From Candidatus Saccharimonadota bacterium (GTDB lineage: Bacteria > Patescibacteriota > Gracilibacteria > UBA1369 > 2-02-FULL-48-14), in NCBI GenBank assembly GCA_041661045.1, contig JBAZVE010000001.1:420001-452000 (forward strand): 32,000 nucleotides of DNA. The letters are read 5' to 3'. Position numbers and translations under genes: made by a program. Below, piece by piece: positions 5,633 to 31,706 of the stretch. The notes beneath the pieces are model-generated. The model saw nothing but the letters and a program-made list of their open reading frames with translations, was not told the origin of the DNA and did no database searches. The number at the start of each line of letters is the position of its first letter. The stretch's first letter is position 1.

Positions 5633-6451
5633 ATGACCGACATTGAACTCTATAGAAAAGCTAAGTTTTTTGGAAAGAATGCTCTCTTGTGGCGGAGGAA
5701 GTTTATGGGCTTGCTGCCGGAGGTGCAGCGGAGGCGACTCTATGAGAAGCGCGGCTTCGGGTCCATTTTTGAATTTTCTTTTAAGTTGGCCGGTTTGAGT
5801 GAAGAGCAAGTGAGAAGGGTTTTACAGCTGGAGAGGAAGTTTGAGGGGGTGCCTGTTTTGAAGGAGCTGCTGGAGAGTGGAGCAGTGAGTGTGAATAAAC
5901 TGGCGAGGGTGGCTTCTATTGCGACTGTGGCGAACCAGGAGGACTTGGCGGAAGCGGTGAGGGTTTTGCCCAAAAGCGCAGTGGAAACTTTGGTGAGAGA
6001 TGAGCGATTTCAAAAATCAAATGGCTTATTTAAGCCACAAATTGAAGTAAAATCTGTGCCCGGGCACTTGAACTTGGATGAAAAAGTTGTGGGCCGCCTG
6101 TTGGAGCTGCAGGGGAAAGGCATAGACCTCAATGCAATGATGATGGAAATGTTGGACCGAAGGGAGCAAGAAATTGCAGAGGAAAAAGTGGCTATTGCGG
6201 AGGATTTGCCTGAAACGCAGTCGCGACATGTGCCTGTGCGAACCAAGAAAGTATTGCGGAAGGAACACGGCACTAAGTGCTCCATCGCCAGCTGCAGGAG
6301 GCCGGCGGAACAGCTGCACCACACGCAAACCTTTGCCCTGAGCCACCGCCACGATCCGCACTATCTCGCGCCGCTCTGTAAAGAGCACCACATTTTGGCG
6401 CATTCGGTAAATCTGAAAGTGTGGGAGAGAAGGGTGGAGGCGATCAGTTGA
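5633..6451 (+). CDS. HNH endonuclease domain protein
   Basis: C-terminal HNH-type motif CSIASCRRPAEQLHHTQTFALSHRHDPHYLAPLCKEHHILAH, with a helical N-terminal domain. ATG 5633 is preferred over GTG 5600. An extended -10 TGATAGAAT lies at 5601-5609. Confidence 0.8.
   Translation: MTDIELYRKAKFFGKNALLWRRKFMGLLPEVQRRRLYEKRGFGSIFEFSFKLAGLSEEQVRRVLQLERKFEGVPVLKELLESGAVSVNKLARVASIATVANQEDLAEAVRVLPKSAVETLVRDERFQKSNGLFKPQIEVKSVPGHLNLDEKVVGRLLELQGKGIDLNAMMMEMLDRREQEIAEEKVAIAEDLPETQSRHVPVRTKKVLRKEHGTKCSIASCRRPAEQLHHTQTFALSHRHDPHYLAPLCKEHHILAHSVNLKVWERRVEAIS
6020..6073 (+). repeat. 54-nt double-hairpin repeat, copy 1 (in frame within the HNH gene)
   Basis: AATGGCTTATTTAAGCCACAAATTGAAGTAAAATCTGTGCCCGGGCAC matches 27849-27796 on the minus strand at 40 of the first 48 nt (hand alignment). 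Hairpins are TGGCTTA-TT-TAAGCCA and GTGCC-CG-GGCAC. Confidence 0.8.
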
Positions 6452-17127: not shown

Positions 17128-17133
17128 GAAAAC

Positions 17134-17142: not shown

Positions 17143-17199
17143 CATTATTAATTTCAAATATAGAAAGTTAACATTTTTATATCTTAAACACTTTTTCGT

Positions 17200-17229
17200 T
17201 TGCCTTTTGGTGAGGTAGGGGTGTATAAT
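17200..17229 (+). promoter_or_regulatory. strong orphan sigma70-like promoter
   Basis: TTGCCT (17200-17205), 18 nt, TATAAT (17224-17229). It points into a region with no long ORF. Confidence 0.5.
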
Positions 17230-17254
17230 TTATATGTTGTTATTTTGGAACTGG

Positions 17255-17275
17255 CCGCTGAAAAGCGGTTTTTTT
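17255..17275 (+). terminator. intrinsic terminator 1
   Basis: CCGCT-GAAA-AGCGG hairpin (GNRA loop) followed by T7. Confidence 0.5.
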
Positions 17276-17376
17276 ATCCCCCAAGCGGGCTCTCATGACC
17301 TTCAATAATTCACAACTCGTAAACCCTCGACCCCGAGCCTAGTCTCGAGGGAACTTTGTGTTTGCGTAAACCTTTC

Positions 17377-17402
17377 CCCGAGACGAAATCTCGGGTTTTT
17401 TT
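17377..17402 (+). terminator. intrinsic terminator 2
   Basis: CCCGAGA-CGAAA-TCTCGGG hairpin (7-bp stem) followed by T7. Confidence 0.6.
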
Positions 17403-17503
17403 ATGTTTATTTTCATTTTAAAGCCATGGGTCCGAAGACTACCCCGCAAGGGGTTCCTATCATCATGATTGTTTTGTGAATTTTATTCTTAAACTTTTAA
17501 AAT

Positions 17504-18268: not shown

Positions 18269-18330
18269 GATTTCACCTTGTCGGCTGCAACCTGTGTGAG
18301 TTCCTCCACTTGCGCGGTTGCAGCGATGAG
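18265..18330 (-). pseudogene. vapC (PIN toxin) 3-prime gene fragment
   Basis: The minus strand reads LIAATAQVEELTQVAADKVKS*, compared with intact VapC LIAATAQVEGLTLVTADKDF. About 43 of 54 nt are identical to 19766-19713 by hand alignment. No N-terminal part is present. Confidence 0.6.
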
Positions 18331-18335
18331 TTTTT

Positions 18336-19061
18336 TTATTCCACGGCGTAGGCCACACGAATATTGGCGCCTTCCTGTTTGATTTTGCGAATGGTCATGT
18401 GCCCAAGGTCGCCCATTTGATCCACATGCGTGCCGCCGCAAGGAACGCCGAAATCACCGTAATAAACAATGCGCAGGGGTTTGCCGGGACTCAACGAGGG
18501 CGGGACTTGAAAGCCACGGTTTTGAAGTTCCTCGGCAGACACAAATTCAATGCGCGTTGGAATGTTTTCTTGAATGATTTCATTGCAAGTTTTTTCAATT
18601 TCAGTGAGAAGTTCCTCTTTGTTCATTCCTTCCAAGCTACCCTCGTATTCAATATACGGTCCATCGGGGAAGTGGTAGCCTTTGCCCGGAATCCAATCGA
18701 TGTTCAGCCGTTTGAGCGCCAGATCCACGACATGCCCGCCGGAGTGGAGGCGGCGATGCAGGGCACGGCGACTTGGCTCAATGTGAAGTGAAACGGCATC
18801 GCCTTCGGCAAAGCGTCCGGATGTGAAATGCCCGATGTGTTTGATGAGGCCATCCAAATAACGCACTTCGTCCACCTCAAATGAGGCGGCGGCGGAAGTG
18901 ATGCTGCCTTTGTCGTAAGGTTGGCCGCCGCCTTGAGCGTAAAAAAGAGTTCGATCAAGAAAGACGATAGTCTTCCCTTCACTGTCCAGCACGGATTGGA
19001 CCGTAGCTGTGCCTTCGGTGGCCGCCATGTCAGACATGTAAAGCAGTTCAGTGGGTTCCAT
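18336..19061 (-). CDS. alaX: alanyl-tRNA editing protein AlaX (AlaX-M type)
   Basis: 241 aa with the HxxxH (HSGGH) and CxxxH (CGGTH) zinc motifs of the Ala/Thr-tRNA synthetase editing/SAD domain. Confidence 0.85.
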   Translation of the reverse strand: MEPTELLYMSDMAATEGTATVQSVLDSEGKTIVFLDRTLFYAQGGGQPYDKGSITSAAASFEVDEVRYLDGLIKHIGHFTSGRFAEGDAVSLHIEPSRRALHRRLHSGGHVVDLALKRLNIDWIPGKGYHFPDGPYIEYEGSLEGMNKEELLTEIEKTCNEIIQENIPTRIEFVSAEELQNRGFQVPPSLSPGKPLRIVYYGDFGVPCGGTHVDQMGDLGHMTIRKIKQEGANIRVAYAVE

Positions 19062-19175
19062 AAGGAGTCGGTTTATGTGAACTTAATCATATTGTTTCTT
19101 GATTTGTTTGTGAAGCTAAGCTTAACGGTTGCAGCCCAATCGGGTGTATAGTGAACCCACTTGATCCCATCGCTT

Positions 19176-19658
19176 ATGAAAACTCTTTTCACCTTTGGAC
19201 TTGGTGCTTTACTTTTGTTTTTTCTCGCGGCTTGTTCGGCTGTCCCCGCACCCAGATCCACCGATTTTTCAGTACGACTCTCCTACACGGAAACCGAGGT
19301 CGGAGAGGATGGCCACTCCACCACGCGCCGTTTATTCATCGAAGACGATAAGTTCACCTACTCCTCCGGAGATTGGGAAGAATCCTTCATTTTAGTTGAA
19401 GATAAACTGCAGGCCATCACTTTGCTGATTCGGGAAAATGGCTTGATGGTGTCCCGCGAAGCCACGATTTCTTCCGGAAATCCGTTGAAGAGTTTTGATA
19501 TTACTTGGGACTTTATTTTGCAAGGACAAAGCTCCATTGGGCATCTGATTGGAGAGCCTGGGGAAGCGGGGGAGGTGATGGGTGAAACGCCGCTGCCCGA
19601 CGAGGGCGTCTTCGCGGTAGAAACGCTGTTTGACTACATAGAAGACGAAGTGCTGTAG
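19176..19658 (+). CDS. lipoprotein, unknown function
   Basis: MKTLFTFGLGALLLFFLAACSA is a signal peptide with a lipobox. ATG 19176 is preferred over the TTG at 19161. Confidence 0.7.
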   Translation: MKTLFTFGLGALLLFFLAACSAVPAPRSTDFSVRLSYTETEVGEDGHSTTRRLFIEDDKFTYSSGDWEESFILVEDKLQAITLLIRENGLMVSREATISSGNPLKSFDITWDFILQGQSSIGHLIGEPGEAGEVMGETPLPDEGVFAVETLFDYIEDEVL

Positions 19659-19666
19659 CAAAGAAA

Positions 19667-20038
19667 TCAGGCACGGATCAAGTTCACTTTGAGCCCTTTG
19701 ATTTTCTTGAAATCCTTGTCCGCGGTGACCAGGGTGAGCCCCTCCACTTGCGCGGTCGCGGCGATAAGGAGATCTTTGAATTTGAGCTTGTACTGTTTTT
19801 GGAGTTTTACTGCCGCTTCGACGATTTCCAGACGAATATCCAAGGGTGCTGTCTCTTTCAACTTGCTTCTTATCTCCTTTTCCTCCGCTTCACTACGGGC
19901 TCCGACCAAGAACTCAAAATGTGAGATCACGCTTGTAAAAAAATACTCTCGATGAAGGCTGAGCAGAGTACTTGCAATACTTTCTCGCCCTTCAAAGAGA
20001 TAAATGAGGATGTTCGTGTCTAAAATATATTCTTCCAT
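19667..20038 (-). CDS. vapC: PIN-domain toxin VapC
   Basis: 123 aa with N-terminal ILDTNILIY (catalytic Asp) and C-terminal LIAATAQVEGLTLVTADKDF. Confidence 0.88.
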   Translation of the reverse strand: MEEYILDTNILIYLFEGRESIASTLLSLHREYFFTSVISHFEFLVGARSEAEEKEIRSKLKETAPLDIRLEIVEAAVKLQKQYKLKFKDLLIAATAQVEGLTLVTADKDFKKIKGLKVNLIRA

Positions 20039-20277
20039 CAGATGTAGTCAAAAAGATCGGCCTCCGGCCTTTTAATTCCCTTTATGGGATGTTTTTGAAT
20101 GTCTTCCAACAGTCGCTCAAAAGGCGTTTTGGCTCGCTTCCGCTTCCTCAGTTTGATTTCGAGCATGTGATCTTCGTCCAATTTCACTTCAATCATGTCC
20201 ACTTTCTTTTGAAGCAGTTTGTTCTTTAAAGCCTTGTAGTTGCGGAGCAATTCGCGATTGGTAATAACGAGGTTCAT
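20038..20277 (-). CDS. VapB-type antitoxin
   Basis: 79-aa ORF immediately upstream of vapC with a 1-nt TGATG stop/start overlap. Confidence 0.65.
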   Translation of the reverse strand: MNLVITNRELLRNYKALKNKLLQKKVDMIEVKLDEDHMLEIKLRKRKRAKTPFERLLEDIQKHPIKGIKRPEADLFDYI

Positions 20278-20309
20278 GCCCCCATGCTAGCATTTGTCTG
20301 ACAAAAGTG

Positions 20310-21116
20310 TCAAACAAGTTGAGAGAGCACCGCGTCAAAACTGCTGTCCCAATTGACCAGCGTTTTCCCGGTCATATCGCCTTCGGCGAGACGGAATTTT
20401 GGTGTGGCCGATTCTGTTTGTGCAGCGAGATAAAACTTTTTCCCATTTTGAAGGGTGAGCTCGTAGGCCTCCAAACCCAGATGGGGGAGGCTTTTGTCCT
20501 CCAACATGAACCCAGCGATTTTCCCGAGCTTGAGTCCCTCGTCCAAATTGGCCCGAAGCGGTTTATCGCCTCGGCTGGAATCCACTTCTCTCATAAGAAC
20601 CATTCTGGAACTCTCTGCTTTTTTTGTGACTGCAGGCGCCCCCGGGATATTGTCTTCCACTTCAAGGCTCGCGATTTGATAATTCGGAGTTCCGTTTTTC
20701 ATTGTCTTCCGCATCAAGGTGACTTTGTTTCCAAAAATACTCAATTCGTCCCCAGGATTCAGCTGAGGATTTGCTTCGTGCAGCTTACGAATCAACTGCG
20801 CGGAAACCGCCAGACTGGCGGACAGGGCATCCTGATCGGAGTAGCCGCCCACTTCCTGATAATATCGTTTCACCAAAAACGAGAGCCCGCGGTCGCCTTT
20901 TTGAGGATCAAAACGCAAATGAGCCCTCCCCGTTTCCTGAGTGGGCAGTGCAAGTGGAACGCTTTTTTTACGAAGCATCTCAAGCTTTGTGGCCGCCTTT
21001 TCAATGGGATCTGCTGAAGTGAAAAGGCTGTTTTCTACGGCGTTCAGGTGCTCGGAAGAAGGCATGGTGGCGTGAATAAATCCTTTAATTATACAATATA
21101 TGTGTTGTTTTGCCAA
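20310..21116 (-). CDS. hypothetical protein
   Basis: 268-aa ORF with normal protein composition. The opposite-strand 236-aa ORF is Cys/His/Phe-rich and was rejected. The start may be ATG 21065 (MPSSEHL). No motif recognised. Confidence 0.6.
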   Translation of the reverse strand: MAKQHIYCIIKGFIHATMPSSEHLNAVENSLFTSADPIEKAATKLEMLRKKSVPLALPTQETGRAHLRFDPQKGDRGLSFLVKRYYQEVGGYSDQDALSASLAVSAQLIRKLHEANPQLNPGDELSIFGNKVTLMRKTMKNGTPNYQIASLEVEDNIPGAPAVTKKAESSRMVLMREVDSSRGDKPLRANLDEGLKLGKIAGFMLEDKSLPHLGLEAYELTLQNGKKFYLAAQTESATPKFRLAEGDMTGKTLVNWDSSFDAVLSQLV

Positions 21117-21166
21117 GGGCTTGCCGGTTCTTTCAACACTTTGGGTAAATCAAGGAGTTCGCAAAA

Positions 21167-21220
21167 ACATATGTGCGCACGCACAGATTTTTCTTCGATC
21201 GTTGTTTATGCGAACTTATT
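21167..21220 (-). repeat. 54-nt double-hairpin repeat, copy 2 (degenerate, intergenic)
   Basis: TGTGCGCACGCACAGATTTT (21172-21191) is identical to 27801-27820. About 37 of 54 nt match the dxr copy overall, and the hairpin-1 half has decayed. It overlaps the stop codon of the 335-aa gene. Confidence 0.7.
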
Positions 21221-22223
21221 GAACTTCACCCACTATGAGGGAAAGGTCTTCTCTAATAGCGCCAGTCCAGTACTTTAAATCTTCTGGAGAGATCCCGTCT
21301 CCCAGCCTTCGGTATACCCCTGTCTGGAGCTCGCGGTTGAGAGTGAGTTCCCTCTCGGTTTCAGGTCCAATGTTCCCTATGAAGACAAAGCCGTGTCTCT
21401 TATCTTCTTCGCTCAGAGCCCCTGCTCGTGCTTTGGCGGATTCAATGGCCTTATCCCAACTGTCATAAGGCCCATAATGATTGAAGAATCTGGAGCAGCT
21501 CTTGTCTTCTTTATCTGGGAACAGATCCGTACAGTCTGTACTTTGGAGTGCGGCCAAATATATGTCTTCTGTTTCTCTATAGTCGGGGTCCGCGAGCATT
21601 GCGGCGTAGTCTTCCGCTGCTTGGAGCCAAACTGCGACTTGTCCTTTTTCTTCGGGAGAATAGGCCTTAAGATGGGCTTCAACATGGGGCCTTGCCCAAG
21701 CCCAGAGCTCTTCCTGTTTCTCGCGATCATGCCCCACTCCACCTTTTGCAAGTCCGTAGGATATACCGACTCCCGGGCCTTTGATTGAAAGATCTTGCCC
21801 CTTTGTGAAGTCTTCGCGCCGGGTGCTATCTAGAACTGCTGTGACCATTTCATGCCACTCCACTGAATCGGGAGTGAGGATGGTTTTTCCCCCACTATTT
21901 GTCTTTACTCGTGGCTTGTCCACCTTCGGAGCTGGCATGAAGTCCTTTACGCCGTCGCAATCGTCGTCTTTCCCATTGGGGTCGATATCTGCTTGGGAAG
22001 GGTTGATCAATGGATCGGCATCATTACAGTCCCCCGGCTGTTTTGCGAGCCGCCCCGTATGCTTTCTCACTTCACCTACTGTTTCTATTCTGTCTCCAGT
22101 CCCATATCCATCCTGATCTGCGTCTAAATAAAAATTGCCTCCAGCGGCTTTAGTTTCATCAGTATCTGAGCAGGCGGGCCCGGACAGTGTTGCCATGAAC
22201 AGGGCAGCTTGGGCTAATTTCAT
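21216..22223 (-). CDS. secreted protein with MopE-like putative metal-binding motif
   Basis: N-terminal signal-like MKLAQAALFMATLSGPACSD. DADQDGYG...DCNDADPLINP...DDDCDG fits the putative metal-binding motif (PF11617-like). The C-terminal 220 aa are unassigned. Confidence 0.6.
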   Translation of the reverse strand: MKLAQAALFMATLSGPACSDTDETKAAGGNFYLDADQDGYGTGDRIETVGEVRKHTGRLAKQPGDCNDADPLINPSQADIDPNGKDDDCDGVKDFMPAPKVDKPRVKTNSGGKTILTPDSVEWHEMVTAVLDSTRREDFTKGQDLSIKGPGVGISYGLAKGGVGHDREKQEELWAWARPHVEAHLKAYSPEEKGQVAVWLQAAEDYAAMLADPDYRETEDIYLAALQSTDCTDLFPDKEDKSCSRFFNHYGPYDSWDKAIESAKARAGALSEEDKRHGFVFIGNIGPETERELTLNRELQTGVYRRLGDGISPEDLKYWTGAIREDLSLIVGEVQ

Positions 22224-22293
22224 AAGAATGAATGGGGAATAAAACGAGTTGCTAGTTTGGCATGTTAAGCCCAGTCTGTCAAGTTCTTGCCCC

Positions 22294-22321
22294 TTGCCGA
22301 AGATGAGGGATCTTCTAGTAT
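22294..22321 (+). promoter_or_regulatory. promoter of recR (leaderless configuration)
   Basis: TTGCCG (22294-22299), 16 nt, TAGTAT (22316-22321), 6 nt, ATG 22328. Confidence 0.4.
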
Positions 22322-22327
22322 AGGCGC

Positions 22328-22936
22328 ATGGATTTCCTCCCCGAATCGATTGTGCGGCTTATAGAAGAGTTTCAGCAGCTCCCGGGCATTGGGCCCAAGA
22401 GTGCGCAGCGCTTGGCTTTTCATCTTTTAAAAGCTTCGGATGGGCGGCTGGAGGGGTTTGGGGCGGCGGTGAAGGGTCTAAAAGACGGCGTTGTAAGTTG
22501 TTCCACCTGTTTTTCACTCACCACGGAAAACCCGTGCCGCATTTGCAGTGATGCGCGGCGCGATCAGGGAGTTTTGTGTGTGGTGGAAAGCACGCTCGAT
22601 TTGATCGCTATAGAAAAAACCGGGGAGTACCGCGGACTGTATCATGTGCTGCAAGGCAAACTTTCGCCTTTGGATGGGATTGGGCCGGAGGATTTGCGGG
22701 CTTTTGAACTTTTTGAGCGCGTTTCAGCAGAGGGGAGCACTGTGCGAGAAGTGATTTTGGCTCTCAACCCGGATCTGGAAGGAGACACCACGGCTTTATT
22801 TTTACGACAAAAACTGACGAGTTGGGGGGAGCTGGCCGTGTCCCGCATTGCGCGCGGCATTCCGAGCGGCGGAAATTTGGAATACACCGATGACGCTACT
22901 CTGATTCGGGCAATGCAGGGAAGGCAGAGTATGTGA
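22328..22936 (+). CDS. recR: recombination protein RecR
   Basis: HhH segment LPGIGPKSAQRLAFHLL, C4 zinc finger CSTC..CRIC, Toprim domain. 202 aa. Confidence 0.95.
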   Translation: MDFLPESIVRLIEEFQQLPGIGPKSAQRLAFHLLKASDGRLEGFGAAVKGLKDGVVSCSTCFSLTTENPCRICSDARRDQGVLCVVESTLDLIAIEKTGEYRGLYHVLQGKLSPLDGIGPEDLRAFELFERVSAEGSTVREVILALNPDLEGDTTALFLRQKLTSWGELAVSRIARGIPSGGNLEYTDDATLIRAMQGRQSM

Positions 22937-23546
22937 GGCTCATGGGGCGCCCAAGGAAGTCACAGAGTTGTTTCCCTATCGCCCTACCGGCCTCTAAGCG
23001 GCGGTACTCAGGAGGAACGATAAGAAGATCTGCATCAAAGCGCGTTGTGATGTTACCAATGGTGGAGGCGGTTCGTGCGGAGATATTGCGAATCTCAGCC
23101 ATCTGCAAGTCGTCTCCGTCATATCCTGCAAGGAAATTCTGAAGCTCTGTTTGTACTGCCAAGGTTTTTCGTACCCCAAGATAGAGTTCTACTGCCCTTT
23201 TCACAACCATCATTGGAGTGCTGGAAAGGATGCGCCACTCTGGGTTACTCCCACCAGGAAGATCTAAGTTCCAGAGCCTGTCCACTTCGGCATTCAGTCC
23301 ACTGAACCTCACTCCATCCGTCTGCGTGGGGATACGCCACTCGATTTTGCTTAAATGGGGTTCTTTAAGTCTATTTAGAAAGATCTGAGTGGCTTGGATC
23401 CTTTCCCTCTGCTCCTCGGGTGAGTCATAGGTAAAAAGTAGCCCCCGCACGATATCTATCAAGTCCTCGAGCTCCGGCGCCGTTACGGGTCTTAATGGGC
23501 CGAGAGTGGCGTACACGGATGGGACATAGTGGACGGTTTCTCTCAT
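22896..23546 (-). CDS. hypothetical protein
   Basis: 216-aa ORF with no recognisable motif. It has a 41-nt convergent overlap with the recR 3-prime end. Confidence 0.5.
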   Translation of the reverse strand: MRETVHYVPSVYATLGPLRPVTAPELEDLIDIVRGLLFTYDSPEEQRERIQATQIFLNRLKEPHLSKIEWRIPTQTDGVRFSGLNAEVDRLWNLDLPGGSNPEWRILSSTPMMVVKRAVELYLGVRKTLAVQTELQNFLAGYDGDDLQMAEIRNISARTASTIGNITTRFDADLLIVPPEYRRLEAGRAIGKQLCDFLGRPMSLTYSAFPALPESE

Positions 23547-23583
23547 TGCTCTTGGTGTTCGGGCCTGGAATCATCCGCCAATT

Positions 23584-24333
23584 TCATTGTTTTGGCAAGC
23601 CCGTCTGCAGATGAACGAAGGCCCCACCGGAACCGGTGAGCACCGTGGTGGGATTTTTGAAAGAGAGGTCCGAGAAAATTTGTTCAAAGTCGTTGTGGAG
23701 GGGGAAGGGGAGATCGAGGGCTGAGAGGGTGGCGAGACCCGGCGCGGTGGATTTGAGGCCGAGGCGGTCCCATTTTGCAAAGGCTTCTTTGGTGGAAACG
23801 GGAATGCCGGTGAAGCCCACTTCGAGGTGGAGGGCGGGCGGAAGTGGGGGGAGGGGGGCGAGGATTTCGCCGTAATGGGTTCCGCGAGCCACGGCGAATC
23901 CGGAAAGAAAAAAGGGTACATCCATGCCGATTTGCATTCCAAGTTCCAGAAGCGTTTGCGCGGAGAGATTGAGGTTTTCGTGGGTGTTGAGATAGAGGAG
24001 CAGGGCGGCCGCGTCGCTGGAGGCACCGCCGAGCCCGGACTGGATCGGAATGTTTTTGTGGACCGTGATGGTGTACGAGTAAACGCGGCCCGTGTGCGCT
24101 TCAAGAACGCGGAGCGCTTTTATAAGTGTGTTGTCTTCGGGATCGATGCCGTCTGCCGGGATGAAACGGATGTCGCTTGCGTGGCCCACGAGGGGCGCGG
24201 TTTCGATTTCAATTTCGTCTTGCAGGGCTTCGTAGCGCGCATACACCGTGTCCAGTTCGTGGTAGCCCGAAGCGTCCTTGCCCAGAATGGCGAGGTACAG
24301 GTTCACTTTGGCGGGGGCGAAAATTGTGGTCAT
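23584..24333 (-). CDS. ispE: 4-diphosphocytidyl-2-C-methyl-D-erythritol kinase
   Basis: GHMP kinase with N-terminus APAKVNLYLAILGK and ATP motif PIQSGLGGASSDAAA. Confidence 0.92.
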   Translation of the reverse strand: MTTIFAPAKVNLYLAILGKDASGYHELDTVYARYEALQDEIEIETAPLVGHASDIRFIPADGIDPEDNTLIKALRVLEAHTGRVYSYTITVHKNIPIQSGLGGASSDAAALLLYLNTHENLNLSAQTLLELGMQIGMDVPFFLSGFAVARGTHYGEILAPLPPLPPALHLEVGFTGIPVSTKEAFAKWDRLGLKSTAPGLATLSALDLPFPLHNDFEQIFSDLSFKNPTTVLTGSGGAFVHLQTGLPKQ

Positions 24334-24491
24334 TTTCTATACGCCAAGAAAAAAAATACGATGGAGGTCATGAGCGGGAGAATTGAAAAAGCTTGAAGTT
24401 CAGCGAGATGAGCGTTGTTGCTCCCCACCACCAACATTCCTACGGTGAGTATGGCTGAAAGCAGTCCGAGCTCAGGAAAATATTTTTTCAT
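24330..24491 (-). CDS. small membrane protein (53 aa), not in the ORF track
   Basis: Hand translation: MKKYFPELGLLSAILTVGMLVVGSNNAHLAELQAFSILPLMTSIVFFFLAYRK*. It has two hydrophobic helices. The ATG lies inside the last 7 codons of ispDF, and its TGA overlaps the ispE ATG as ATGA. Confidence 0.5.
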   Translation of the reverse strand: MKKYFPELGLLSAILTVGMLVVGSNNAHLAELQAFSILPLMTSIVFFFLAYRK

Positions 24492-25596
24492 GATTTGTAT
24501 GAAGCGTGACTAACGCAAGGCACCGCAGGCCCTCTCCACGGCCGAACGGAGTGAGGTCTTCGCCAGTGTGGGCGGAGATATGAATTTGAGAAGCTTCAAT
24601 CTGTAAAATCCTCCCTAGGGAGCTTTTTAAGGCCGGAGCGATGGGGTCTATTTGAGGGCGGCTGCCTTCCAAAGAGAGTGAAATGTTTTGGATGGAGATG
24701 CCCTCGAGCAGGGGCTCCAAATAATCTTGGCTGTCGAAGTTGCCCCCGAGCATGAGCGGGTCCGCCACTTCGGAAAAATTTGTCCCCTTGGCCTGAGCCA
24801 AAGCGCGGCCGATGGCGTGCAAAATAATGTCTCCGTCCGAATTGGCTTCCAGTGCCGGACAGTCGGAAATCGAGAGGCCGCCGAGTGTGAGCGTACCGGT
24901 GCCGGAGAATCGATGAGAATCTTCACCAAGAAAAGTTTGTGAGGCCCTCTCACCCTTGTCGAACATGTGCTCCAAATCTTCTTTCGTGGTGATTTTTTTG
25001 TTGTCGGGGTGGGCGGGGAGAATTTTTACGGGAATAAAGTCGAGAAGGGCGGTGCTGAGATCCGTGGAATCGGACAGTGCGCTTTTATTCAAAATATCCT
25101 GAAGAATGTCCCCACGAACGGCCTGTGGCGTTTGCATGAGACGAAGTTTTTCGCGCGGGATGCTTGCGGTATAAAATCCATTTTCCACTTCCAATACCGT
25201 GTCGACACACTCGTGTGAAACTGCCGCAGCCCCATGTATTTTGGCGGCTTCCAGCACTGCTGAAATTTCCTCGTTGGTCACAAAAGGATTCGCGGCGTTG
25301 TGATCCAGCACCACCGTGCGACTGTCCACACTTCCCACGGCCACCAGCCCTCGCTTAAATGATTCCATGCGCGTCTCTCCACCACTCACCACCTGTGTTT
25401 TTTCGTTATTCAAGAACGGCAGAAAGCGCAATTCTTCTCCCTTGGGCACCACCAGTACGATGTGGTCGATTTCCAGGTGATTTGAAAAAGTTTCATAGGC
25501 CCGCGTCCAAAGTGGCTTATTGCCCACAAGCACCCATAATTTATTTTGCCCGGCTCGCTGAGACTTCCCGGCGGCCAAAAGAATGACGGTGTTCAT
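24472..25596 (-). CDS. ispDF: bifunctional IspD/IspF (MEP cytidylyltransferase / MEcPP synthase)
   Basis: N-terminal IspD signature ILLAAGKSQRAG. The C-terminal IspF half has GEDSHRFS and SDGDIILHAIGRAL. Confidence 0.92.
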   Translation of the reverse strand: MNTVILLAAGKSQRAGQNKLWVLVGNKPLWTRAYETFSNHLEIDHIVLVVPKGEELRFLPFLNNEKTQVVSGGETRMESFKRGLVAVGSVDSRTVVLDHNAANPFVTNEEISAVLEAAKIHGAAAVSHECVDTVLEVENGFYTASIPREKLRLMQTPQAVRGDILQDILNKSALSDSTDLSTALLDFIPVKILPAHPDNKKITTKEDLEHMFDKGERASQTFLGEDSHRFSGTGTLTLGGLSISDCPALEANSDGDIILHAIGRALAQAKGTNFSEVADPLMLGGNFDSQDYLEPLLEGISIQNISLSLEGSRPQIDPIAPALKSSLGRILQIEASQIHISAHTGEDLTPFGRGEGLRCLALVTLHTNHEKIFS

Positions 25597-25616
25597 GTGG
25601 ACAAAGACTTAGAGAT

Positions 25617-25973
25617 TTATCTCCTGGGTACACCTACAAACTCTCGTTTGAGCCCTTCTACTGAGCGCTTGTGAATAGATTGGAGATCTTCAATGCGGAG
25701 CCCAGCTATTAGCCTGCGGATTCCTTGCTCGACAGATTCCACTCCTTCCAGCGTTCCCATTCGTTTATTAAAAATATTTTCAGCCAAGACCCTTTTAAGA
25801 GTTAAATCCAGATCCGTGCGAGCATTGATCTTTTCTTGATCTTGCTTGGGAAGCTTGCTGAGGGCGGCGTTTAAAAGTTCTTGGAGGGCTGCATTGATTG
25901 ATCCATGGGAGTGATCTACGGCCGTGGCGGCTTCCGCTGTGAGCGGGGCAGTGGGCTGCGTGTTGATTGACAT
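25617..25973 (-). CDS. hypothetical protein
   Basis: 118-aa helical-looking ORF 20 nt upstream of ispDF on the same strand. No motif recognised. Confidence 0.5.
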   Translation of the reverse strand: MSINTQPTAPLTAEAATAVDHSHGSINAALQELLNAALSKLPKQDQEKINARTDLDLTLKRVLAENIFNKRMGTLEGVESVEQGIRRLIAGLRIEDLQSIHKRSVEGLKREFVGVPRR

Positions 25974-26068
25974 ACTTGTTTGGTTACGGTTTTGAATTCT
26001 ACTGCTTGGGGGCTTTAAACCGCAAGGGCTATTGCTGAATTCGATTTTTGTTGGTAAATTTCCCTGCG

Positions 26069-26488
26069 ATGGATGAAAATTCTCCCGGCGATGGCGTACA
26101 GTTGAATCAAATGGTTAATTTGGCTGTTTTGACGGGTGCAGAGATAGAGCCAAGCACTCCGGAAGAGGCTGCGCAGCTCCTTCGTATACTGCAGTCTTAC
26201 TGCACTGCGGTGGCAACCGTGGCGGCCGGAGATTTGGCGGACGCAGATGCACGAGTAGCGGCGGCGAAGATGGAGGCTGCTAGGGCTCAAGAGGACAAAA
26301 TGGTGGCCCAACACAAAGCGGCACAAGCACTCGTGGCACTGATAAGGGAAAAACAGACTTTGATCGCTTTGCGTGCTGCGATGGATGAACTTGATGCTGA
26401 GCTTAGTGGGACGCGGAACCTCCTTACGAAATTCCGTGTCTGCTTAGCGTTTGTTGAAAGATTTCGGGTTTTGTTGAATCCTCGCTGA
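26069..26488 (+). CDS. hypothetical coiled-coil protein
   Basis: The Ala/Glu/Gln-rich heptad-like region (AAAKMEAARAQEDKMVAQHKAAQALVALIREKQ) suggests a coiled coil. ATG 26069 is preferred over TTG 26048. It competes with two minus-strand ORFs that look spurious. Confidence 0.45.
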   Translation: MDENSPGDGVQLNQMVNLAVLTGAEIEPSTPEEAAQLLRILQSYCTAVATVAAGDLADADARVAAAKMEAARAQEDKMVAQHKAAQALVALIREKQTLIALRAAMDELDAELSGTRNLLTKFRVCLAFVERFRVLLNPR

Positions 26489-26496
26489 TCCTCTTT

Positions 26497-26862
26497 ATGA
26501 AAAATACTTTTCTTCGTTTCCTTTTTGCTTGCGCTGCCTGGCTGACGGTTGTTTTGATTTTCGTTCTTCTGCCGCTTGGTTTTAATGTGTACGACTCTTA
26601 CCCCGCTTTTTCCGTGAATATTTTCTTCCTTCTTTGTCTCCCTTTTTTTGCGGGTGGCAGTGTGTTCCAAGCAATTTTTCGAGGAAAACTTCGAGCGGTT
26701 GGCTTTTTGTCTTTTTTTATCGTCCCCATCCTCCTCCTTTGGTTTGCCGTTGGGCTGCCGAATGGACTCCATGGATTTGAATTCTTGGTCATAGCTGCGC
26801 TAACCCTCAGCATCGGCTCCTCTACTTTCCTTGGAGCTTATGCGTACCGGCGGTTCGGATGA
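26497..26862 (+). CDS. membrane protein, about 4 TM helices
   Basis: 121 aa, strongly hydrophobic throughout (FLFACAAWLTVVLIFVLLPLGF...). It has a 63-nt convergent overlap with the dxr 3-prime end. Confidence 0.6.
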   Translation: MKNTFLRFLFACAAWLTVVLIFVLLPLGFNVYDSYPAFSVNIFFLLCLPFFAGGSVFQAIFRGKLRAVGFLSFFIVPILLLWFAVGLPNGLHGFEFLVIAALTLSIGSSTFLGAYAYRRFG

Positions 26863-28005
26863 ATGATGGGTGATCTTTTCATGAAACTCCAGTAGCTCCT
26901 CCAGAGTGCTCGGAGGCGTTTCCCAGAGCCAGCGGTCCAGGCCGGCTTCGATGAAATCATAAATCCCAAGGAAGGTCATTTCGCCGCGAAGAAAACGGGC
27001 CACGGCGATGTCGTTGAGGGCATTTAAAATGATGGGGAAGTTGGGGTTGCCCGCGTGAAGCTTCAGCCATTTGAGGGGGCGGAAGGTCTCGCTGTCGGGC
27101 GGGGTGAAATCCATTTGGCTTTTGGGCGCGCGCTGGATGGGCCAGGGGCATTTGGGCTGTTCGGGGTAGTGGAGGGCGTAGGAAATAAACAGCCGCATGT
27201 CGTTTTGTGTGATGTGCATGCGGGTGGCGCCGGTTTTTGTGTGCACCATGCTGTGCACCAAACTTTGGCGATGGACCCTAATGTGGATGTCTTTGAGCGG
27301 AATGTCGAAGAGATTGTGGACCTCGTAGACTTCCAGCACTTTGTTGATGAGAGTGGCGGAATCGATGGAGACTTTTGGGCCCATTTTCCAGGTTGGGTGG
27401 GCGAGGGCCTGGGCGGGTGTGACGAGGGCGAGGTCGGCGGTGGTTTTGCCAAAAAATGGGCCGCCGGAGCAGGTGAGGGTGACGGAGGAAATTGGGTTGT
27501 TTTTTGTGGGTGCGGCTTCAGTGAGGAGTTGCCAAATGGCGGAGGCTTCGCTGTCGAGCGGGCGGATTTCGGCGCCAGTTCTTTGCGCTTCCGCTCGGAG
27601 GAATTTCCCTGCGATGGCGAGGGATTCTTTGTTGGCGGAGAGGAGAATTTTTGGGCTGGTCGGTGTGGAGGCGCGCACGGCGGCGAGCGAAATGGCGAGG
27701 CCGTCGAAGCCGGGCACGGCATTGACGACGAAATCGGCGCGAGCGATGAGGTCGGCGACTTGCTCGGGGGTGGGTGCGAGAAAAGCTCCGCGTGGAAATC
27801 TGTGCGCACGCACAGATTTTGCCTCGATTTGTGGCTTACTTAAGCCATTCTCATTTAAAAACTCACCAGCTTGTTCAGCCAGTAGTTCGGCATTTTTATG
27901 CGCCGTGAGTCCCACTACTTCAAACTCACCTGGGAAGGCACGGAGCACCTCCAAGGTTTGCTTACCGATGGATCCGGTGGAGCCGAAGAGGGCTAGGGTT
28001 TTCAT
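26800..28005 (-). CDS. dxr: 1-deoxy-D-xylulose 5-phosphate reductoisomerase
   Basis: NADPH site LFGSTGSIGKQTL, LSANKESLA, and DSEASAIWQ (compare DSEHNAIFQ in E. coli). 401 aa. Carries the 18-codon repeat insert at residues 53-70. Confidence 0.93.
   Translation of the reverse strand: MKTLALFGSTGSIGKQTLEVLRAFPGEFEVVGLTAHKNAELLAEQAGEFLNENGLSKPQIEAKSVRAHRFPRGAFLAPTPEQVADLIARADFVVNAVPGFDGLAISLAAVRASTPTSPKILLSANKESLAIAGKFLRAEAQRTGAEIRPLDSEASAIWQLLTEAAPTKNNPISSVTLTCSGGPFFGKTTADLALVTPAQALAHPTWKMGPKVSIDSATLINKVLEVYEVHNLFDIPLKDIHIRVHRQSLVHSMVHTKTGATRMHITQNDMRLFISYALHYPEQPKCPWPIQRAPKSQMDFTPPDSETFRPLKWLKLHAGNPNFPIILNALNDIAVARFLRGEMTFLGIYDFIEAGLDRWLWETPPSTLEELLEFHEKITHHSSEPPVRISSKESRGADAEG
27796..27849 (-). 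repeat. 54-nt double-hairpin repeat, copy 3 (in frame within dxr)
   Basis: The sense strand reads AATGGCTTAAGTAAGCCACAAATCGAGGCAAAATCTGTGCGTGCGCACAGATTT. Hairpins are TGGCTTA-AG-TAAGCCA and AAATCTGTGCG-TG-CGCACAGATTT (11-bp stem). It encodes NGLSKPQIEAKSVRAHRF. Confidence 0.85.
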
Positions 28006-28049
28006 AAATTGGCTTGTCTACTTCTTTGAAGCCAATCATAAACCCAAAA

Positions 28050-28078
28050 TTGCCCATCGCAAAAAGCTTATGTAAACT
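28050..28078 (+). promoter_or_regulatory. promoter of the small membrane protein gene (leaderless configuration)
   Basis: TTGCCC (28050-28055), 17 nt, TAAACT (28073-28078), 7 nt, ATG 28086. Confidence 0.4.
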
Positions 28079-28085
28079 TGGTCTT

Positions 28086-28352
28086 ATGAAAAATCGCCCT
28101 TCTCTACTCAGGGTTGTCGCTGGCCTCCTTTTGTTGGGGCTGGCTGCCGTGAGCTCATTTTTCTCGTATGTGGTGTTCACCTTTGCACACTATCTCAGCA
28201 AACTTCCCGAACTGGGGGAGACCAAGCTTTGGGATGAAAGCGCAGCGAGCACCTATGACGCCTCGGGACCGCTATTCTACTCGAGCCTTGGCGTGGTGAG
28301 TGCTTTGCTTGTGATCGTTTTGATCATCTGCACCTGGCGAATTCTTAAGTAG
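28086..28352 (+). CDS. small membrane protein, 2 TM helices
   Basis: 88 aa from ATG 28086: MKNRPSLLRVVAGLLLLGLAAVSSFF... plus the C-terminal helix VVSALLVIVLIICTW. Confidence 0.6.
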   Translation: MKNRPSLLRVVAGLLLLGLAAVSSFFSYVVFTFAHYLSKLPELGETKLWDESAASTYDASGPLFYSSLGVVSALLVIVLIICTWRILK

Positions 28353-28407
28353 TGGCCGCAATGAGCCTTGGGATTTTCTTGATCATTTCAGTGAAAAAAC
28401 ATGCACA

Positions 28408-29505
28408 TTAAATACTATTTTGGACTGTAAAAACAAAATTCCAATCCTCTGGCTTATCAGAATTATTGAAACTCACTTGTGTCAGTTTGCCTTCCGTAAG
28501 CCAGTTTTTTGGTACTTTTTTCAGGCGTCTTGAAAGTTCCTCCAGGCAATTTTGTAGAGGGGGCGGGCTCTGATAGGCTGACCACAGCTCCATGAATTGA
28601 GCTAAAACTGGAATGACCAACTGTGGCAATAGGTCCTCCGACACTGTCTCAGTGTGCTCGTCACGCTCAGAATCAGTAATTGGATCGTTCAATTCAACCC
28701 AATAAACAAAGTTATCCTTCTTCCTCACACCCTCGCGCAATTTACTACGGTCAGCGGGGTCCATTAACACAAGGTCTCTTTCTGTAAGTCGTCCCTGACA
28801 AAATTTTAATGAGTTGAATCCCACGGCTTCTAATGATCGAGCCACTGCAAAGATACTATTGGGATTTAGCGTGTAACCTGCGCTCCTTAATAAGGTGGCC
28901 AGCTCTGCTTTTCCGGTCTTCTTCCCCTTCAAGGAATTCTGAATCACTCGTAGCAGTACATGAAACCTAGCGTCTTGATGTGGGAGTAGATTCCATATTT
29001 CTGGACATGCTCTAATAGCCTGTTGCTCCTCAGAAGAAAGGTCTTTTAAAGAAAGGTGTGGAGGTTCACCCCGTCCTGGTAGCCTCTTATCTCTTTTATC
29101 TATAAGAATTTTATTTGTACGAAGCCTAGCCAAAGCTGCGTTTATCCCCATAGAATCAATTTTTGCATCACTCAAATAAGGGCCATCATTATCTAAAACC
29201 GCTTCCAATGCTTGGAGGTCAAGTCTACGAAGAGGGATCTCTTCCCGTTCTTTATCAACACCTAATCGACTCATACACTCCTGAACTGCCAGCAAATATT
29301 CCTTACGGGCTTGAACGATTTCCGTATGGTTTACTATTGCCTCTAAGTCAGGATATCTCTCGTGGATTTTTGCTAAACCGGTCCCCCTAGCTAAAGCCAC
29401 CCTAACCTTCCTTACCAATTGCGGATCTAAAGGAATTCCCCCTCCCTCAAGAGCTCCATCACACGCTTGCCTCAGCCCATCATATGTGGCACTTATTGTC
29501 CTCAT
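28408..29505 (-). CDS. hypothetical protein (cassette gene B)
   Basis: 365-aa ORF, helical-looking and lower in GC than its neighbours. Its start overlaps the upstream stop as TAATG. No catalytic motif recognised. Confidence 0.65.
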   Translation of the reverse strand: MRTISATYDGLRQACDGALEGGGIPLDPQLVRKVRVALARGTGLAKIHERYPDLEAIVNHTEIVQARKEYLLAVQECMSRLGVDKEREEIPLRRLDLQALEAVLDNDGPYLSDAKIDSMGINAALARLRTNKILIDKRDKRLPGRGEPPHLSLKDLSSEEQQAIRACPEIWNLLPHQDARFHVLLRVIQNSLKGKKTGKAELATLLRSAGYTLNPNSIFAVARSLEAVGFNSLKFCQGRLTERDLVLMDPADRSKLREGVRKKDNFVYWVELNDPITDSERDEHTETVSEDLLPQLVIPVLAQFMELWSAYQSPPPLQNCLEELSRRLKKVPKNWLTEGKLTQVSFNNSDKPEDWNFVFTVQNSI

Positions 29506-30560
29506 TAGCGATTCAAATTAAGGGGCACATCAAATGAGGCGCGAAATCGTAGGTCGGGCCTTGGATACGAAACTTTTTCCGCAGTCGTTTCGAGTAATCT
29601 AGTATCTGTATATGAGTGGGATCTGCTGTAGGTGAGGGGGCCTATTTTAAATTTTTCCGTATATCCTCTCGCTCTCGTTTCGAAAACTTGCTTGGCCTTC
29701 ACAGTAAGAATACCTAACATATCTAAGCAAGGCATGCGTAAGTCCGGGCGGAAATAACCAATAATAGCGGCAAAATGGCTGGGGCTCGTCCACCTTGCAC
29801 CCGTCCTGTCACTACCCCAAGTGTAGCCGAACTCATAAAAGCCTTCTTCATCTAGGAAAGTGGGGTGAAGTTCCGTTTTTTCTTCGGTGTCCGCTCTGTC
29901 ATCCCGAAACTTAATATCAAGTGGTTTCCCCTCACGGAGCCCAAGAGCCGTTAAAGTTGCCCATGTGTGGATGTCTGTACCCCTTATTCCATCTCTTCTC
30001 TTTTTTTCCCAAAAGATCCTAAACCTATCGTCTGAAGTAAGACTAGAATCATCCCATCCTTGAGGTTTTGTGACGGACTGGGCTCCATGGACTAATTCCC
30101 CAAACCAAGTAGGGTTTTGCACTCTCGATGGGGGCGGAGATAACCTAATGTTACGAAAGCGTTCTTCGCCTTGTGGCTGCCTATTATCAGCTAAATAAGA
30201 TCCTATCCATTGATCCTCTGCATCCAAATCTAAATCTTGTTGTGGGCTTGCTTCAGTCCCCATTCTTCTGGGCTGCCCATTCACTAGTCTTGTAACAAGA
30301 TCAAGTCTATCTCTTGGAGAGACCAGCTTGTTTTGATACATAACTTCAGCCCCTCCCTCCCTCAAACTGTCAATCGTCCCTTTCGAAAGAGCCCCCTGCA
30401 TCGTACGAATGATATGATCTATAGTCTCTTTACTCCCAGGCAGGGTTGGCACACCAGGCTCCCCAAAGAGACCGGCATTTGCTTCTCTTGAGGACTCAAA
30501 TCCAGTTTTGACGATATCCTCTACCTGATCCTTATCAGTTGAATTTAATTGTGGTGACAT
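29505..30560 (-). CDS. hypothetical protein (cassette gene A)
   Basis: 351-aa ORF, low in GC, with a polar and probably disordered N-terminal third. No motif recognised. Confidence 0.65.
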   Translation of the reverse strand: MSPQLNSTDKDQVEDIVKTGFESSREANAGLFGEPGVPTLPGSKETIDHIIRTMQGALSKGTIDSLREGGAEVMYQNKLVSPRDRLDLVTRLVNGQPRRMGTEASPQQDLDLDAEDQWIGSYLADNRQPQGEERFRNIRLSPPPSRVQNPTWFGELVHGAQSVTKPQGWDDSSLTSDDRFRIFWEKKRRDGIRGTDIHTWATLTALGLREGKPLDIKFRDDRADTEEKTELHPTFLDEEGFYEFGYTWGSDRTGARWTSPSHFAAIIGYFRPDLRMPCLDMLGILTVKAKQVFETRARGYTEKFKIGPLTYSRSHSYTDTRLLETTAEKVSYPRPDLRFRASFDVPLNLNR

Positions 30561-30570
30561 GGTTAACTAG

Positions 30571-30599
30571 GAATTAAGAATTAAGAGCGAGGAGCGAGG
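30571..30599. repeat. two adjacent tandem heptamer duplications in the cassette 5-prime region
   Basis: GAATTAA-GAATTAA followed by GAGCGAG-GAGCGAG on the plus strand. They lie between ATG 30560 and a TATTAT -10-like box (minus strand, 30609-30604). Confidence 0.6.
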
Positions 30600-30611
30600 G
30601 TCGATAATACG

Positions 30612-31706
30612 CTACTTCGTCTTTTTGTCAATAAGTCTGAGCAACTCCGGCACCAAGTCTGCTTCGGGGACATTGGCTTTGTAGAGTTCGCCTTTGTAGT
30701 AGAGGGCGCCGGCGTGTTTGCCGCCGGCGATGGCAAAGTCGGATTCTTTGGCTTCGCCCACACTGTTTACCACGCAGCCCATCACGGCGATGCGCACGGG
30801 TTTTTTGAGATGGCGCGTGGCTTCTTCCACTTCGTGCACCATTTTTGGGAGATCCACTTCGATGCGGCCGCAAGTGGGGCAGGCGATGATGTCCGGTTCC
30901 TTGCTGTAAAGGCCGATGGATTTGAGAATGCTTTTGCAGACCTCCACTTCTTTCACAATGTCGTCGGTGATGGACGCGCGGATGGTGTCGCCGATGCCTT
31001 GCATGAGCAGCGTTCCGATGCCGAGGGCGTTTTTAACGGTGCCGGGGATTAGGAGGCCGGCATGGGTGACGCCGAGGTGGAGTGGCGGGGCGTCCGGGCG
31101 GTCGGCGGTGGCTTGCGCGAATTTTTGGTAGGCCTCCACCATCACGGGGACGCGTTCACTTTTAATGGACACGGCGAAATTGGTGAAGCCCAGATCTTCC
31201 ACAAACTTAACCCAGCGCAGGGCGGATTCGGCCAGAGCCTCCGCCGTGGGGGCGCCGTGTTTTTCCCACAGGTCTTTTTCAAGGGAGCCGGCGTTCACGC
31301 CGATGCGCATGGCGGCGTTCTTTTTTTGCGCGAGCAGAATGACTTTTTCAAGATAAGAGCGGTCAAAAAAATTCCCGGGATTGATGCGGATTTTGTCCGC
31401 GCCGTAGTCGAGCGCAGCGATGGCGAGGCGCGGGTCGAAATGAATGTCCGCCACGATGGGGAGTTTGGTTTTTGCTTTAATCAGCGGGATGGCTTTGGCC
31501 GCATCAAAACTCGGCATGGCCAAACGAATGAGGTCGCAGCCGATGTCTTCCACGGTTTTTATTTCGGCCACGGTGGCCTCGATGTCCTCCGTCTTTCCCA
31601 TGCACATGGTTTGAATCGCCACGGGGTGCTCACTGCCAATTTTAACTTGGCGCGCGGGATCCACACCGATGGTGCAGGTTCGAGTTTTGCGTCGGGGAAT
31701 GGTCAT
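30612..31706 (-). CDS. ispG: 4-hydroxy-3-methylbut-2-en-1-yl diphosphate synthase
   Basis: GcpE family. N-terminal TIM-barrel part (VKIGSEHPVAIQTM). C-terminal Fe-S ligand context is CPTCGR and GCVVNSVGE. 364 aa. Confidence 0.93.
   Translation of the reverse strand: MTIPRRKTRTCTIGVDPARQVKIGSEHPVAIQTMCMGKTEDIEATVAEIKTVEDIGCDLIRLAMPSFDAAKAIPLIKAKTKLPIVADIHFDPRLAIAALDYGADKIRINPGNFFDRSYLEKVILLAQKKNAAMRIGVNAGSLEKDLWEKHGAPTAEALAESALRWVKFVEDLGFTNFAVSIKSERVPVMVEAYQKFAQATADRPDAPPLHLGVTHAGLLIPGTVKNALGIGTLLMQGIGDTIRASITDDIVKEVEVCKSILKSIGLYSKEPDIIACPTCGRIEVDLPKMVHEVEEATRHLKKPVRIAVMGCVVNSVGEAKESDFAIAGGKHAGALYYKGELYKANVPEADLVPELLRLIDKKTK

Follow-up and report, generated by a model that had tools for sequence, protein, structure and literature searches.

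The stretch analyzed here (the window) comprises 32,000 nucleotides, positions 420,001 to 452,000 of contig JBAZVE010000001.1 in assembly GCA_041661045.1 of a Candidatus Saccharimonadota bacterium, and contains, within the gene for 1-deoxy-D-xylulose-5-phosphate reductoisomerase (dxr), a 54-nt element that folds into two hairpins and is translated as part of the enzyme. The dxr gene (26800..28005, minus strand, 401 aa) was identified from its open reading frame (ORF), from the Pfam domains PF02670 (N-terminal NADPH-binding), PF08436 (catalytic), and PF13288 (C-terminal helical), all three above their cut-offs, from matches to solved Dxr structures in the PDB (best E = 6e-57), and from an AlphaFold model. 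The metal, substrate, and catalytic residues D151, E153, S180-G182, H203, K222, and E225 are invariant across an alignment of 46 orthologues, and the gene lies in a cluster of the methylerythritol phosphate pathway, in the order gcpE, dxr, ispDF, ispE, and then recR. The closest relatives come from genomes labeled Candidatus Peribacteria or Peregrinibacteria, bacteria of the Candidate Phyla Radiation (CPR) with genomes of ~1.3 Mb.

The element occupies 27796..27849 on the minus strand and encodes residues N53-F70 of Dxr (NGLSKPQIEAKSVRAHRF), with an exact codon mapping (27849..27796) that bears out the one given in the initial annotation. Hairpin 1, TGGCTTA-AG-TAAGCCA (27832..27847, minus strand), encodes (N)GLSKP and has a conserved stem and a loop that varies between copies. 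An A-rich spacer follows, CAAATCGAGGCA (27820..27831, minus strand, codons Q-I-E-A), near-invariant across copies from different genomes and loci, and then hairpin 2, a 24-nt palindrome found by pattern search, AAATCTGTGCG-TG-CGCACAGATTT (27796..27819, minus strand), which has an 11-bp stem and encodes K63-F70. The initial annotation had described this 11-bp stem and the stop-free, in-frame reading, both of which we find, and had overlooked hairpin 1. The sole part of hairpin 2 that is family-wide is the inner TGTGC-N4-GCACA. With both hairpins, the 54-mer folds at -19.5 kcal/mol (z = -3.8), a stability reached by none of 200 shuffled sequences. A known RNA family was rejected, as Rfam gave no match at E <= 10 across 27600-28050.

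A second full copy, in the same reading frame, lies on the plus strand at 6020..6073, where it encodes the peptide NGLFKPQIEVKSVPGHLN and carries hairpin 2 as the variant GTGCCCGGGCAC; its host is an HNH-like ORF of 272 aa (P0121, 5633..6451, plus strand) that belongs to a multi-copy family. An intergenic half copy, made up of the spacer and hairpin 2 (21169..21215, minus strand), stands directly 3' of the stop codon of ORF 21216..22223, which brings the content of the 32 kb to two full copies and one half copy. A repeat search matched the dxr element to 6020-6067 on the opposite strand (48 nt, 83%) and to 21169-21199 (31 nt, 90%), and an nhmmer profile of eight copies hit three places in the window only, with E values of 1.7e-9, 2e-8, and, for the half copy, 0.021. 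An origin by chance or low complexity was rejected, since 0.00 chance matches are expected in the pattern search of the window; perfect palindromes of at least 12 nt show no general excess there (8 versus 8.2 expected). An att site or island boundary was also rejected: the copies flank no island, and the interval from the copy at 21.2 kb to that at 27.8 kb contains the core genes recR, ispE, and ispDF. Window positions 16800-31005 (14,206 bp), dxr included, are matched at 100% identity by a Logan assembly made separately from run SRR18595301, and this excludes an assembly chimera as far as a comparison of assemblies allows. Of note, the window also holds a 55-nt direct repeat (18276-18330 versus 19714-19768, 80% identity) that is unrelated to the element.

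The half copy looks like a bidirectional terminator, as a terminator scan found a GC-rich stem with a T-run on both strands at 21172-21185. Just downstream of it is a sigma-70-like promoter (21088-21116, minus strand, TTGGCA-17-TATAAT, 11 of 12 matches), and the half copy may separate two transcription units. On the sense strand of dxr, no T-run follows the stem of the element, so that this hairpin should not terminate transcription.

To place the element among its relatives, we compared 81 CPR orthologues of Dxr and outgroups. The full peptide is present in 16 of the 81, a trimmed form in 4 (for example, EFLKSVPGH and EFLPKSLPGQ), the second palindrome only in 9 (for example, EFSVHVHTF, SLHVQTF, and SVPGHKGL), and nothing of it in 52; distant CPR enzymes read EF-[SG]A-x3-LG and have no such segment. 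The element-bearing orthologues come from many independent samples, and among the orthologues and outgroups compared the element was not found in Dxr outside Peribacteria-type CPR bacteria. At least 16 orthologues, 62 to 82% identical, carry it with the same EF-L junction, which contradicts a recent, private colonization of this genome. The EF-L (TTA) junction is common to all full and trimmed forms and argues for a single origin in Dxr followed by internal deletions. Changes of state were nevertheless numerous, at least 11 on the Dxr tree in 100 of 100 bootstrap replicates.

These comparisons also refine what was inserted. The proposal of an insertion holds in that the segment is absent outside the lineage and from many close orthologues, but its boundaries were slightly off. 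P0011 (locus L008), which retains hairpin 2 only, reads GAG TTT TCT GTG CAC GTG CAC ACT TTT, where the window dxr reads GAG TTT / TTA AAT GAG ... GCA AAA / TCT GTG; at the codon level, the difference from this nearest short orthologue is 42 nt, or residues L50-K63 (27817..27858, minus strand). The extent of 18 codons is accordingly not upheld at its C-terminal side, the hairpin codons S64-F70 being retained in the short orthologue. Hairpin 2 persists without the remaining element in P0015 and P0043 as well. Directly after the element, the five codons PRGAF (27781..27795, minus strand) are missing from the closest orthologue, P0003, and represent a separate indel; because of this indel the comparison with Escherichia coli was misleading, and the resemblance to its EFS and PRYAVMD, used initially as flanking anchors, is coincidental.

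The AlphaFold model of Dxr (mean per-residue confidence, pLDDT, 90.1; predicted template modeling score, pTM, 0.88) places residues 50-73 in a coil between helix 39-49 (alpha2) and strand 74-76 (beta3), with pLDDT below 50 at residues 57-67. The element of Dxr is thus predicted to be a disordered 18-residue loop, and the model suggests that it is exposed at the surface; it follows the second beta-alpha unit of the Rossmann domain (strand 28-35, helix 39-49) and not the first. By the general topology of the Rossmann fold, a loop leading from a helix into a strand is found on the side away from the nucleotide. In the model of the HNH-like protein, the element peptide (residues 130-145) falls in a disordered linker (residues 115-145, pLDDT below 50) that connects an N-terminal helical region with a C-terminal region containing invariant Cys and His residues. 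The last ~20 residues of Dxr are weakly modeled, with a mean pLDDT of 56 over residues 391-400 and a value of 49 at residue 401. At its 3' end (26800-26862), dxr shares 63 nt with a convergent ORF of 121 aa (26497..26862, plus strand), which is called as a gene in the Logan contig too. Residues 151-155 (27541-27555) read DSEAS in all 44 CPR sequences of the 46-sequence alignment, compared with DSEH, at the position of E. coli His153, in the two outgroup orthologues (P0086 and P0114) and in solved Dxr structures; judged from the alignment, DSEAS is a lineage-wide substitution adjoining the active site.

Outside the window, a strict 27-nt pattern was searched in 185,579 representative genomes (one per species), in JGI metagenomes, and in IMG/VR. 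The genomes yielded six copies, all in metagenome-assembled genomes of Peribacteria or Gracilibacteria, at one or two per genome. The metagenomes also yielded six: two on the same contigs as genome matches, two in new HNH-like genes, and two doubtful. A phage origin was rejected, as no match occurred among the IMG/VR viral contigs. By host, the copies fall in Dxr (L005), in HNH-like ORFs (L002, L012, L016, and L020), in an alpha/beta-hydrolase gene (L003) whose Pfam Ser_hydrolase match is divided in two, and in intergenic DNA (L004, L006, and L007). The intergenic copies are mostly found just 3' of stop codons (three of four). In the loci of relatives scanned beyond the ascertained copies, there was no extra nhmmer match (E < 0.01) except one partial match in L011, and a census of host proteins with a 48-aa concatenated element query gave no candidates. 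Within these searches, the repeat occurs only in CPR bacteria of the Peribacteria type, where it is old, present in few copies, and common to related species.

Every coding copy uses one strand and one frame, and in the three unrelated families, Dxr, HNH-like, and alpha/beta hydrolase, the peptide reads NG[LF]xKPxIExKSVxxH. Stop codons alone do not force this choice, given that of the six frames three to four are free of them. Frame +1 is the only one that is both open in eight of eight copies and free of cysteine; frame -2 is likewise open in all eight but encodes cysteine. Some copies carry two second-palindrome units in tandem (L003 at 4236-4973, P0023, P0032, P0037, P0039, P0153, P0158, and P0174), for example SVHVH..LPGQ, written GTGCACGTGCAC ... 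CTGCCCGGGCAG, from which it follows that the 12- to 14-nt palindrome may duplicate on its own.

The main residence of the element, which the initial annotation did not see, is the HNH-like gene family. The window ORF has 1006 homologues, with at least six paralogues on the source contig. At a single aligned site in 120 homologues, 91 have the full peptide, 28 have the second palindrome only, and 1 was missed by the regular expression but reads RLPGQ, so that 119 of 120 carry the segment at one site. We conclude that the 54-nt repeat is, for the most part, a piece of a selfish-looking, multi-copy gene family. Residues C216, C221, H229, H230, C249, H252, H253, and H257 are invariant in the family, and NCBI names the paralogues "HNH endonuclease signature motif containing protein"; the nuclease label is a putative one drawn from this Cys/His pattern and these names. 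The protein has no Pfam or NCBIfam match, with none to DUF222 or HNH in Pfam at E <= 10, and no significant PDB match was obtained by sequence profile or by Foldseek (best E = 1.3). Upstream of the ORF, ~100 nt (5525-5626) are 75 to 77% identical to the regions upstream of the homologues in L002 and L020 and may represent a conserved leader or promoter of the family.

At the nucleotide level, both hairpins show paired change. Across 13 aligned DNA copies, the two helices are 81.6% paired and helix 1 alone 90.1%, and the covariation score of 0.153 (0.066 in shuffles) was reached by none of 500 shuffles. The loop tetranucleotide of hairpin 1 differs in nearly every copy, and the behavior of this hairpin is that of an ordinary stem whose loop is free. 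Hairpin 2 has both-sided changes at 4 of its 11 pairs, and they extend to the protein: in the HNH family, the residue pairs are V-H (58), L-Q (45), L-H (10), and V-Q (1), with PG (51), RA (44), HV (17), or mismatched (7) pairs at the center, and in Dxr they are V-H (12) and L-Q (16), with no mixed pair. The center hexamers, CCCGGG, CGCGCG, and CACGTG, are palindromic, and 9 of 13 copies have a self-complementary central tetranucleotide. Symmetry thus extends across the bases that an RNA hairpin would leave in its loop, and this fits a DNA-level process such as template-switch homogenization at least as well as selection on RNA structure. Published work shows that hairpins of this kind can arise and persist through template switching (PMC8794818, PMC8604942, PMC7202029). 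Mismatches of the G.T type outnumber those of the A.C type by 8 to 4, a difference with no clear strand bias that does not discriminate between RNA and DNA. Between the window Dxr and that of L010, a pair not ascertained by the DNA pattern, the codons at shared element residues are identical at 14 of 14 positions versus 55.6% in the remaining gene (P = 2.7e-4), which suggests that the dxr copy is under constraint or is homogenized with other copies.

Based on these results, we propose, with somewhat better than even confidence, that the dxr copy is a translated passenger of a two-hairpin repeat, copied in once from or alongside the copies in HNH genes, tolerated in a disordered loop, and repeatedly trimmed. 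The repeat itself consists of hairpin 1, the A-rich spacer, and the near-perfect palindrome of hairpin 2, with its main home in the inter-domain linker of HNH-like genes and a few secondary copies in dxr, in the alpha/beta-hydrolase gene, and just past the 3' ends of genes. The copy would have entered the NADPH-binding domain, at the loop between alpha2 and beta3, in an ancestor from which part of the lineage descends; the likeliest routes are illegitimate recombination or template switching with an HNH-gene copy as source, or an insertion resembling that of MITEs (MITE, miniature inverted-repeat transposable element). Its tolerance could be explained by a frame that gives a stop-free, cysteine-free, hydrophilic peptide in a loop that is predicted to be disordered and to lie on the face opposite the nucleotide site, where it presumably has no effect on catalysis. 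After its arrival in dxr, the segment would have been trimmed or lost many times, and the symmetry of its arms could have been kept either by selection on the hairpin or by template-switch homogenization of the inverted repeat.

Several observations weigh against this proposal. The copying event is reconstructed and not observed, and the stand-alone intergenic copies with consistent ends fit an independently mobile unit equally well as the capture of a gene fragment. P0004, which has the full element, is sister to the element-free P0016 and P0017 with 97% bootstrap support, and some sister orthologues look ancestral (EFSATAH, TCT GCC ACC GCC CAC, in L021), unlike products of deletion; some Dxr states may then be independent gains or result from allelic replacement or exchange between related species. 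P0043 has hairpin 2 with no change in length relative to its SAPAY relatives, which corresponds to no simple insertion or deletion. The additional conservation at synonymous sites could mean function and not mere passage. Lastly, the copy number and the share of copies inside HNH genes are extrapolated from ~52 kb of the 1.32-Mb source genome (the window and L020).

An unlikely alternative is a selfish element of the type of the Rickettsia palindromic elements (RPEs) or MITEs, that is, a palindromic repeat moved in trans by a transposase into dxr, into the ancestor of the HNH family, and elsewhere, of which only the in-frame insertions survived. The element is indeed hairpin-forming and repeated and occurs in one frame in three unrelated protein families, its stand-alone intergenic copies from different genomes are ~90% alike with consistent ends, and the position of three of the four just 3' of a stop codon is that of many MITEs and repetitive extragenic palindromes (REPs). 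A short GGCAAA(A) direct repeat marks the hairpin 1 boundary, but in L003 and L004 only, and no consistent target-site duplication is found among the copies. Terminal inverted repeats are absent: reverse-complementing the 3' GCACA does not give AATGGCTT, the sequence at the 5' end, and the two hairpins are separate local palindromes. Furthermore, copy number is very low (the 6 strict matches in 185,579 genomes), most copies occupy one orthologous site of one gene family, the viral contigs gave no match, and no transposase was seen in the window or the loci read (~52 kb of the source genome). The size also disagrees, ~50 nt compared with roughly 100 to 150 bp for RPEs (PMC10969869). The RPE-type repeat colonizing an enzyme that the initial annotation put forward thus survives as a palindromic repeat copied in the same frame into unrelated proteins, and departs from RPEs in its low copy number and its length of ~50 to 54 nt.

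We hold as equally improbable an active role of the HNH-like protein, which would nick or cut palindromes resembling hairpin 2, after which repair from the HNH gene copy or strand switching would write the adjacent 14 to 19 linker codons into the target, dxr for example. The segment is near-universal in this multi-copy family, and the Dxr and HNH genes show the same series, from full to trimmed to hairpin 2 only. Their states agree within three of four genomes: the source genome has a full Dxr and mostly full HNH copies, the AAB383 genome combines SVPGH in Dxr with three HNH copies (P0161, P0189, and P0196) that have hairpin 2 only, and IPG41 combines LRAQ in Dxr with KSLRAQ in the HNH gene. 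This agreement comes from the only four paired genomes sampled, and in the CAZROM01 genome the HNH gene has the full element (L002) and dxr has none (L021). P0043 has moreover gained the exact palindrome TCTGTGCCCGGGCACA with no change in length; short-patch conversion was rejected there, as the seven to eight changes that create the palindrome are no denser than changes elsewhere in this gene pair, which is 81% identical. No HNH-like gene adjoins dxr in any of eight loci (0 of 12 neighboring ORFs resemble the HNH-like protein), which also led us to reject a cassette like that of phage T4 gene 60, with an HNH gene beside dxr. Nuclease activity is deduced only from the Cys/His pattern and the NCBI names, in a protein with no family or fold match. 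Recognition of the hairpin 2 palindrome by the HNH-like protein, with copying of its own 42- to 54-nt linker into genes with a similar palindrome, would be an undescribed selfish system, homing of a fragment and not of a gene. We consider such a system doubtful; if it exists, it would equip core enzymes, Dxr among them, with new loops throughout Peribacteria.

Less credible still is a functional cis-element or peptide module under selection in dxr, be it an mRNA hairpin that sets how stable the message is or how fast it is translated, a site to which a shared factor binds, or a peptide tag. The synonymous sites of the element are more conserved than those of the remaining dxr, the stems covary, the intergenic half copy resembles a bidirectional terminator, and hairpin 2 persists where the rest is lost. 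Yet many close orthologues are wholly devoid of the element in an otherwise well-conserved Dxr, structure prediction gives a disordered peptide in Dxr and in the HNH-like protein alike, and Rfam has no counterpart. The symmetry through the center of the palindrome is not required by an RNA hairpin loop and points to a DNA-level process, and the mismatch counts give no clear strand bias that would favor RNA. As for an artifact or an ordinary sequence (a chimera, a chance match, or an ancestral Dxr loop), in whole-family hidden Markov model alignments the segment can be taken up opposite the alpha2-beta4 region, which is longer in other Dxr enzymes, but two assemblies identical over 14.2 kb, the absence of expected chance matches, the occurrence of the segment in orthologues from many independent samples and of the same DNA in unrelated genes, and its lack in distant CPR Dxr leave this explanation with almost no credence.

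Among known systems, the RPEs (Ogata et al. 2000, 2002, summarized in PMC10969869) come closest; they are elements of roughly 100 to 150 bp present in tens to hundreds of copies. The element resembles them as a hairpin-forming repeat read in the same frame in every host protein, including unrelated conserved enzymes, inserted where the fold can accommodate it, at the surface or in a disordered region, in a bacterium with a reduced genome. It differs from them in its ~50 to 54 nt, its handful of copies per genome, its two local hairpins in place of one long palindrome, its concentration at one site of one HNH-like family, and its CPR host; this distinction is drawn from descriptions of RPE-1 to RPE-10. 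In short, the element works like an RPE but fails membership on copy number and length, and it has no inverted termini of the MITE type. Short GC-rich stem-loops 3' of genes with paired stem changes are likewise features of REPs, of bacterial interspersed mosaic elements, and of terminator-like MITEs, such as SPRITE of pneumococcus (named in PMC10969869). Those elements are extragenic and abundant, and REPs need a REP-associated tyrosine transposase (RAYT), unlike the present element, whose best-conserved copies are translated. No RAYT (Y1) or other transposase was seen in the ~52 kb of the 1.32-Mb source genome formed by the window and L020.

In quasipalindrome template switching and inverted-repeat homogenization (PMC7202029, PMC8604942, PMC8794818), arms change together, including the center of a perfect palindrome, as we observe. 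The process also explains multi-nucleotide changes inside coding sequence and hairpins made or kept without selection. It is, however, a mutational process and does not explain how the 42 nt of hairpin 1 plus spacer reached unrelated genes. In phage T4, the HNH gene mobA and the 50-nt insertion in gene 60 form a mobile cassette, in which the nuclease gene is adjacent and the insert is bypassed by the ribosome. The dxr element parallels it in that an insertion of ~50 nt with a hairpin lies in a gene presumed to be essential, has ties to a putatively selfish gene of HNH type, and leaves the protein preserved, and departs from it in that the insert is translated and no HNH-like gene adjoins dxr. 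The DUF222/HNH "13E12 repeat" proteins of mycobacteria are multi-copy and suspected to be selfish, and their description, helices in the N-terminal part and a Cys/His motif of HNH type toward the C terminus, is similar to that of the HNH-like protein, which nevertheless matches neither DUF222 nor HNH in Pfam at the cut-off given above. We know of no internal palindromic segment in the DUF222/HNH family.

To our knowledge, protein-coding palindromic repeats are textbook material only for Rickettsia, and a partial literature search turned up no account of an element of this kind in Peribacteria or elsewhere in the CPR. The present case shows that reduced genomes other than those of Rickettsia can also have conserved enzymes reshaped by small structured DNA, here by a repeat that is shorter and rarer than the RPEs and tied to a selfish-looking HNH-like gene family. 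The DNA symmetry is unusually clean in the protein, with V-H and L-Q pairs around a PG, RA, or HV center in two unrelated families, and offers a tractable system for asking whether in-gene hairpins are kept by selection or by template switching. It also calls for caution in annotation, as lineage-specific loops of CPR proteins may be derived from repeats and not be adaptive.

Upstream of dxr, the interval before gcpE (30612..31706) is occupied by a low-GC block (28014-30560, GC 0.42-0.48 versus 0.55-0.62 in the body of dxr) with two ORFs, neither of which belongs to a Pfam or NCBIfam family. The cargo of this gcpE-dxr slot varies among relatives, with AbiEi/AbiEii in L011 and other hypothetical genes in L008, L009, L018, and L021, and the slot resembles an integration hotspot.

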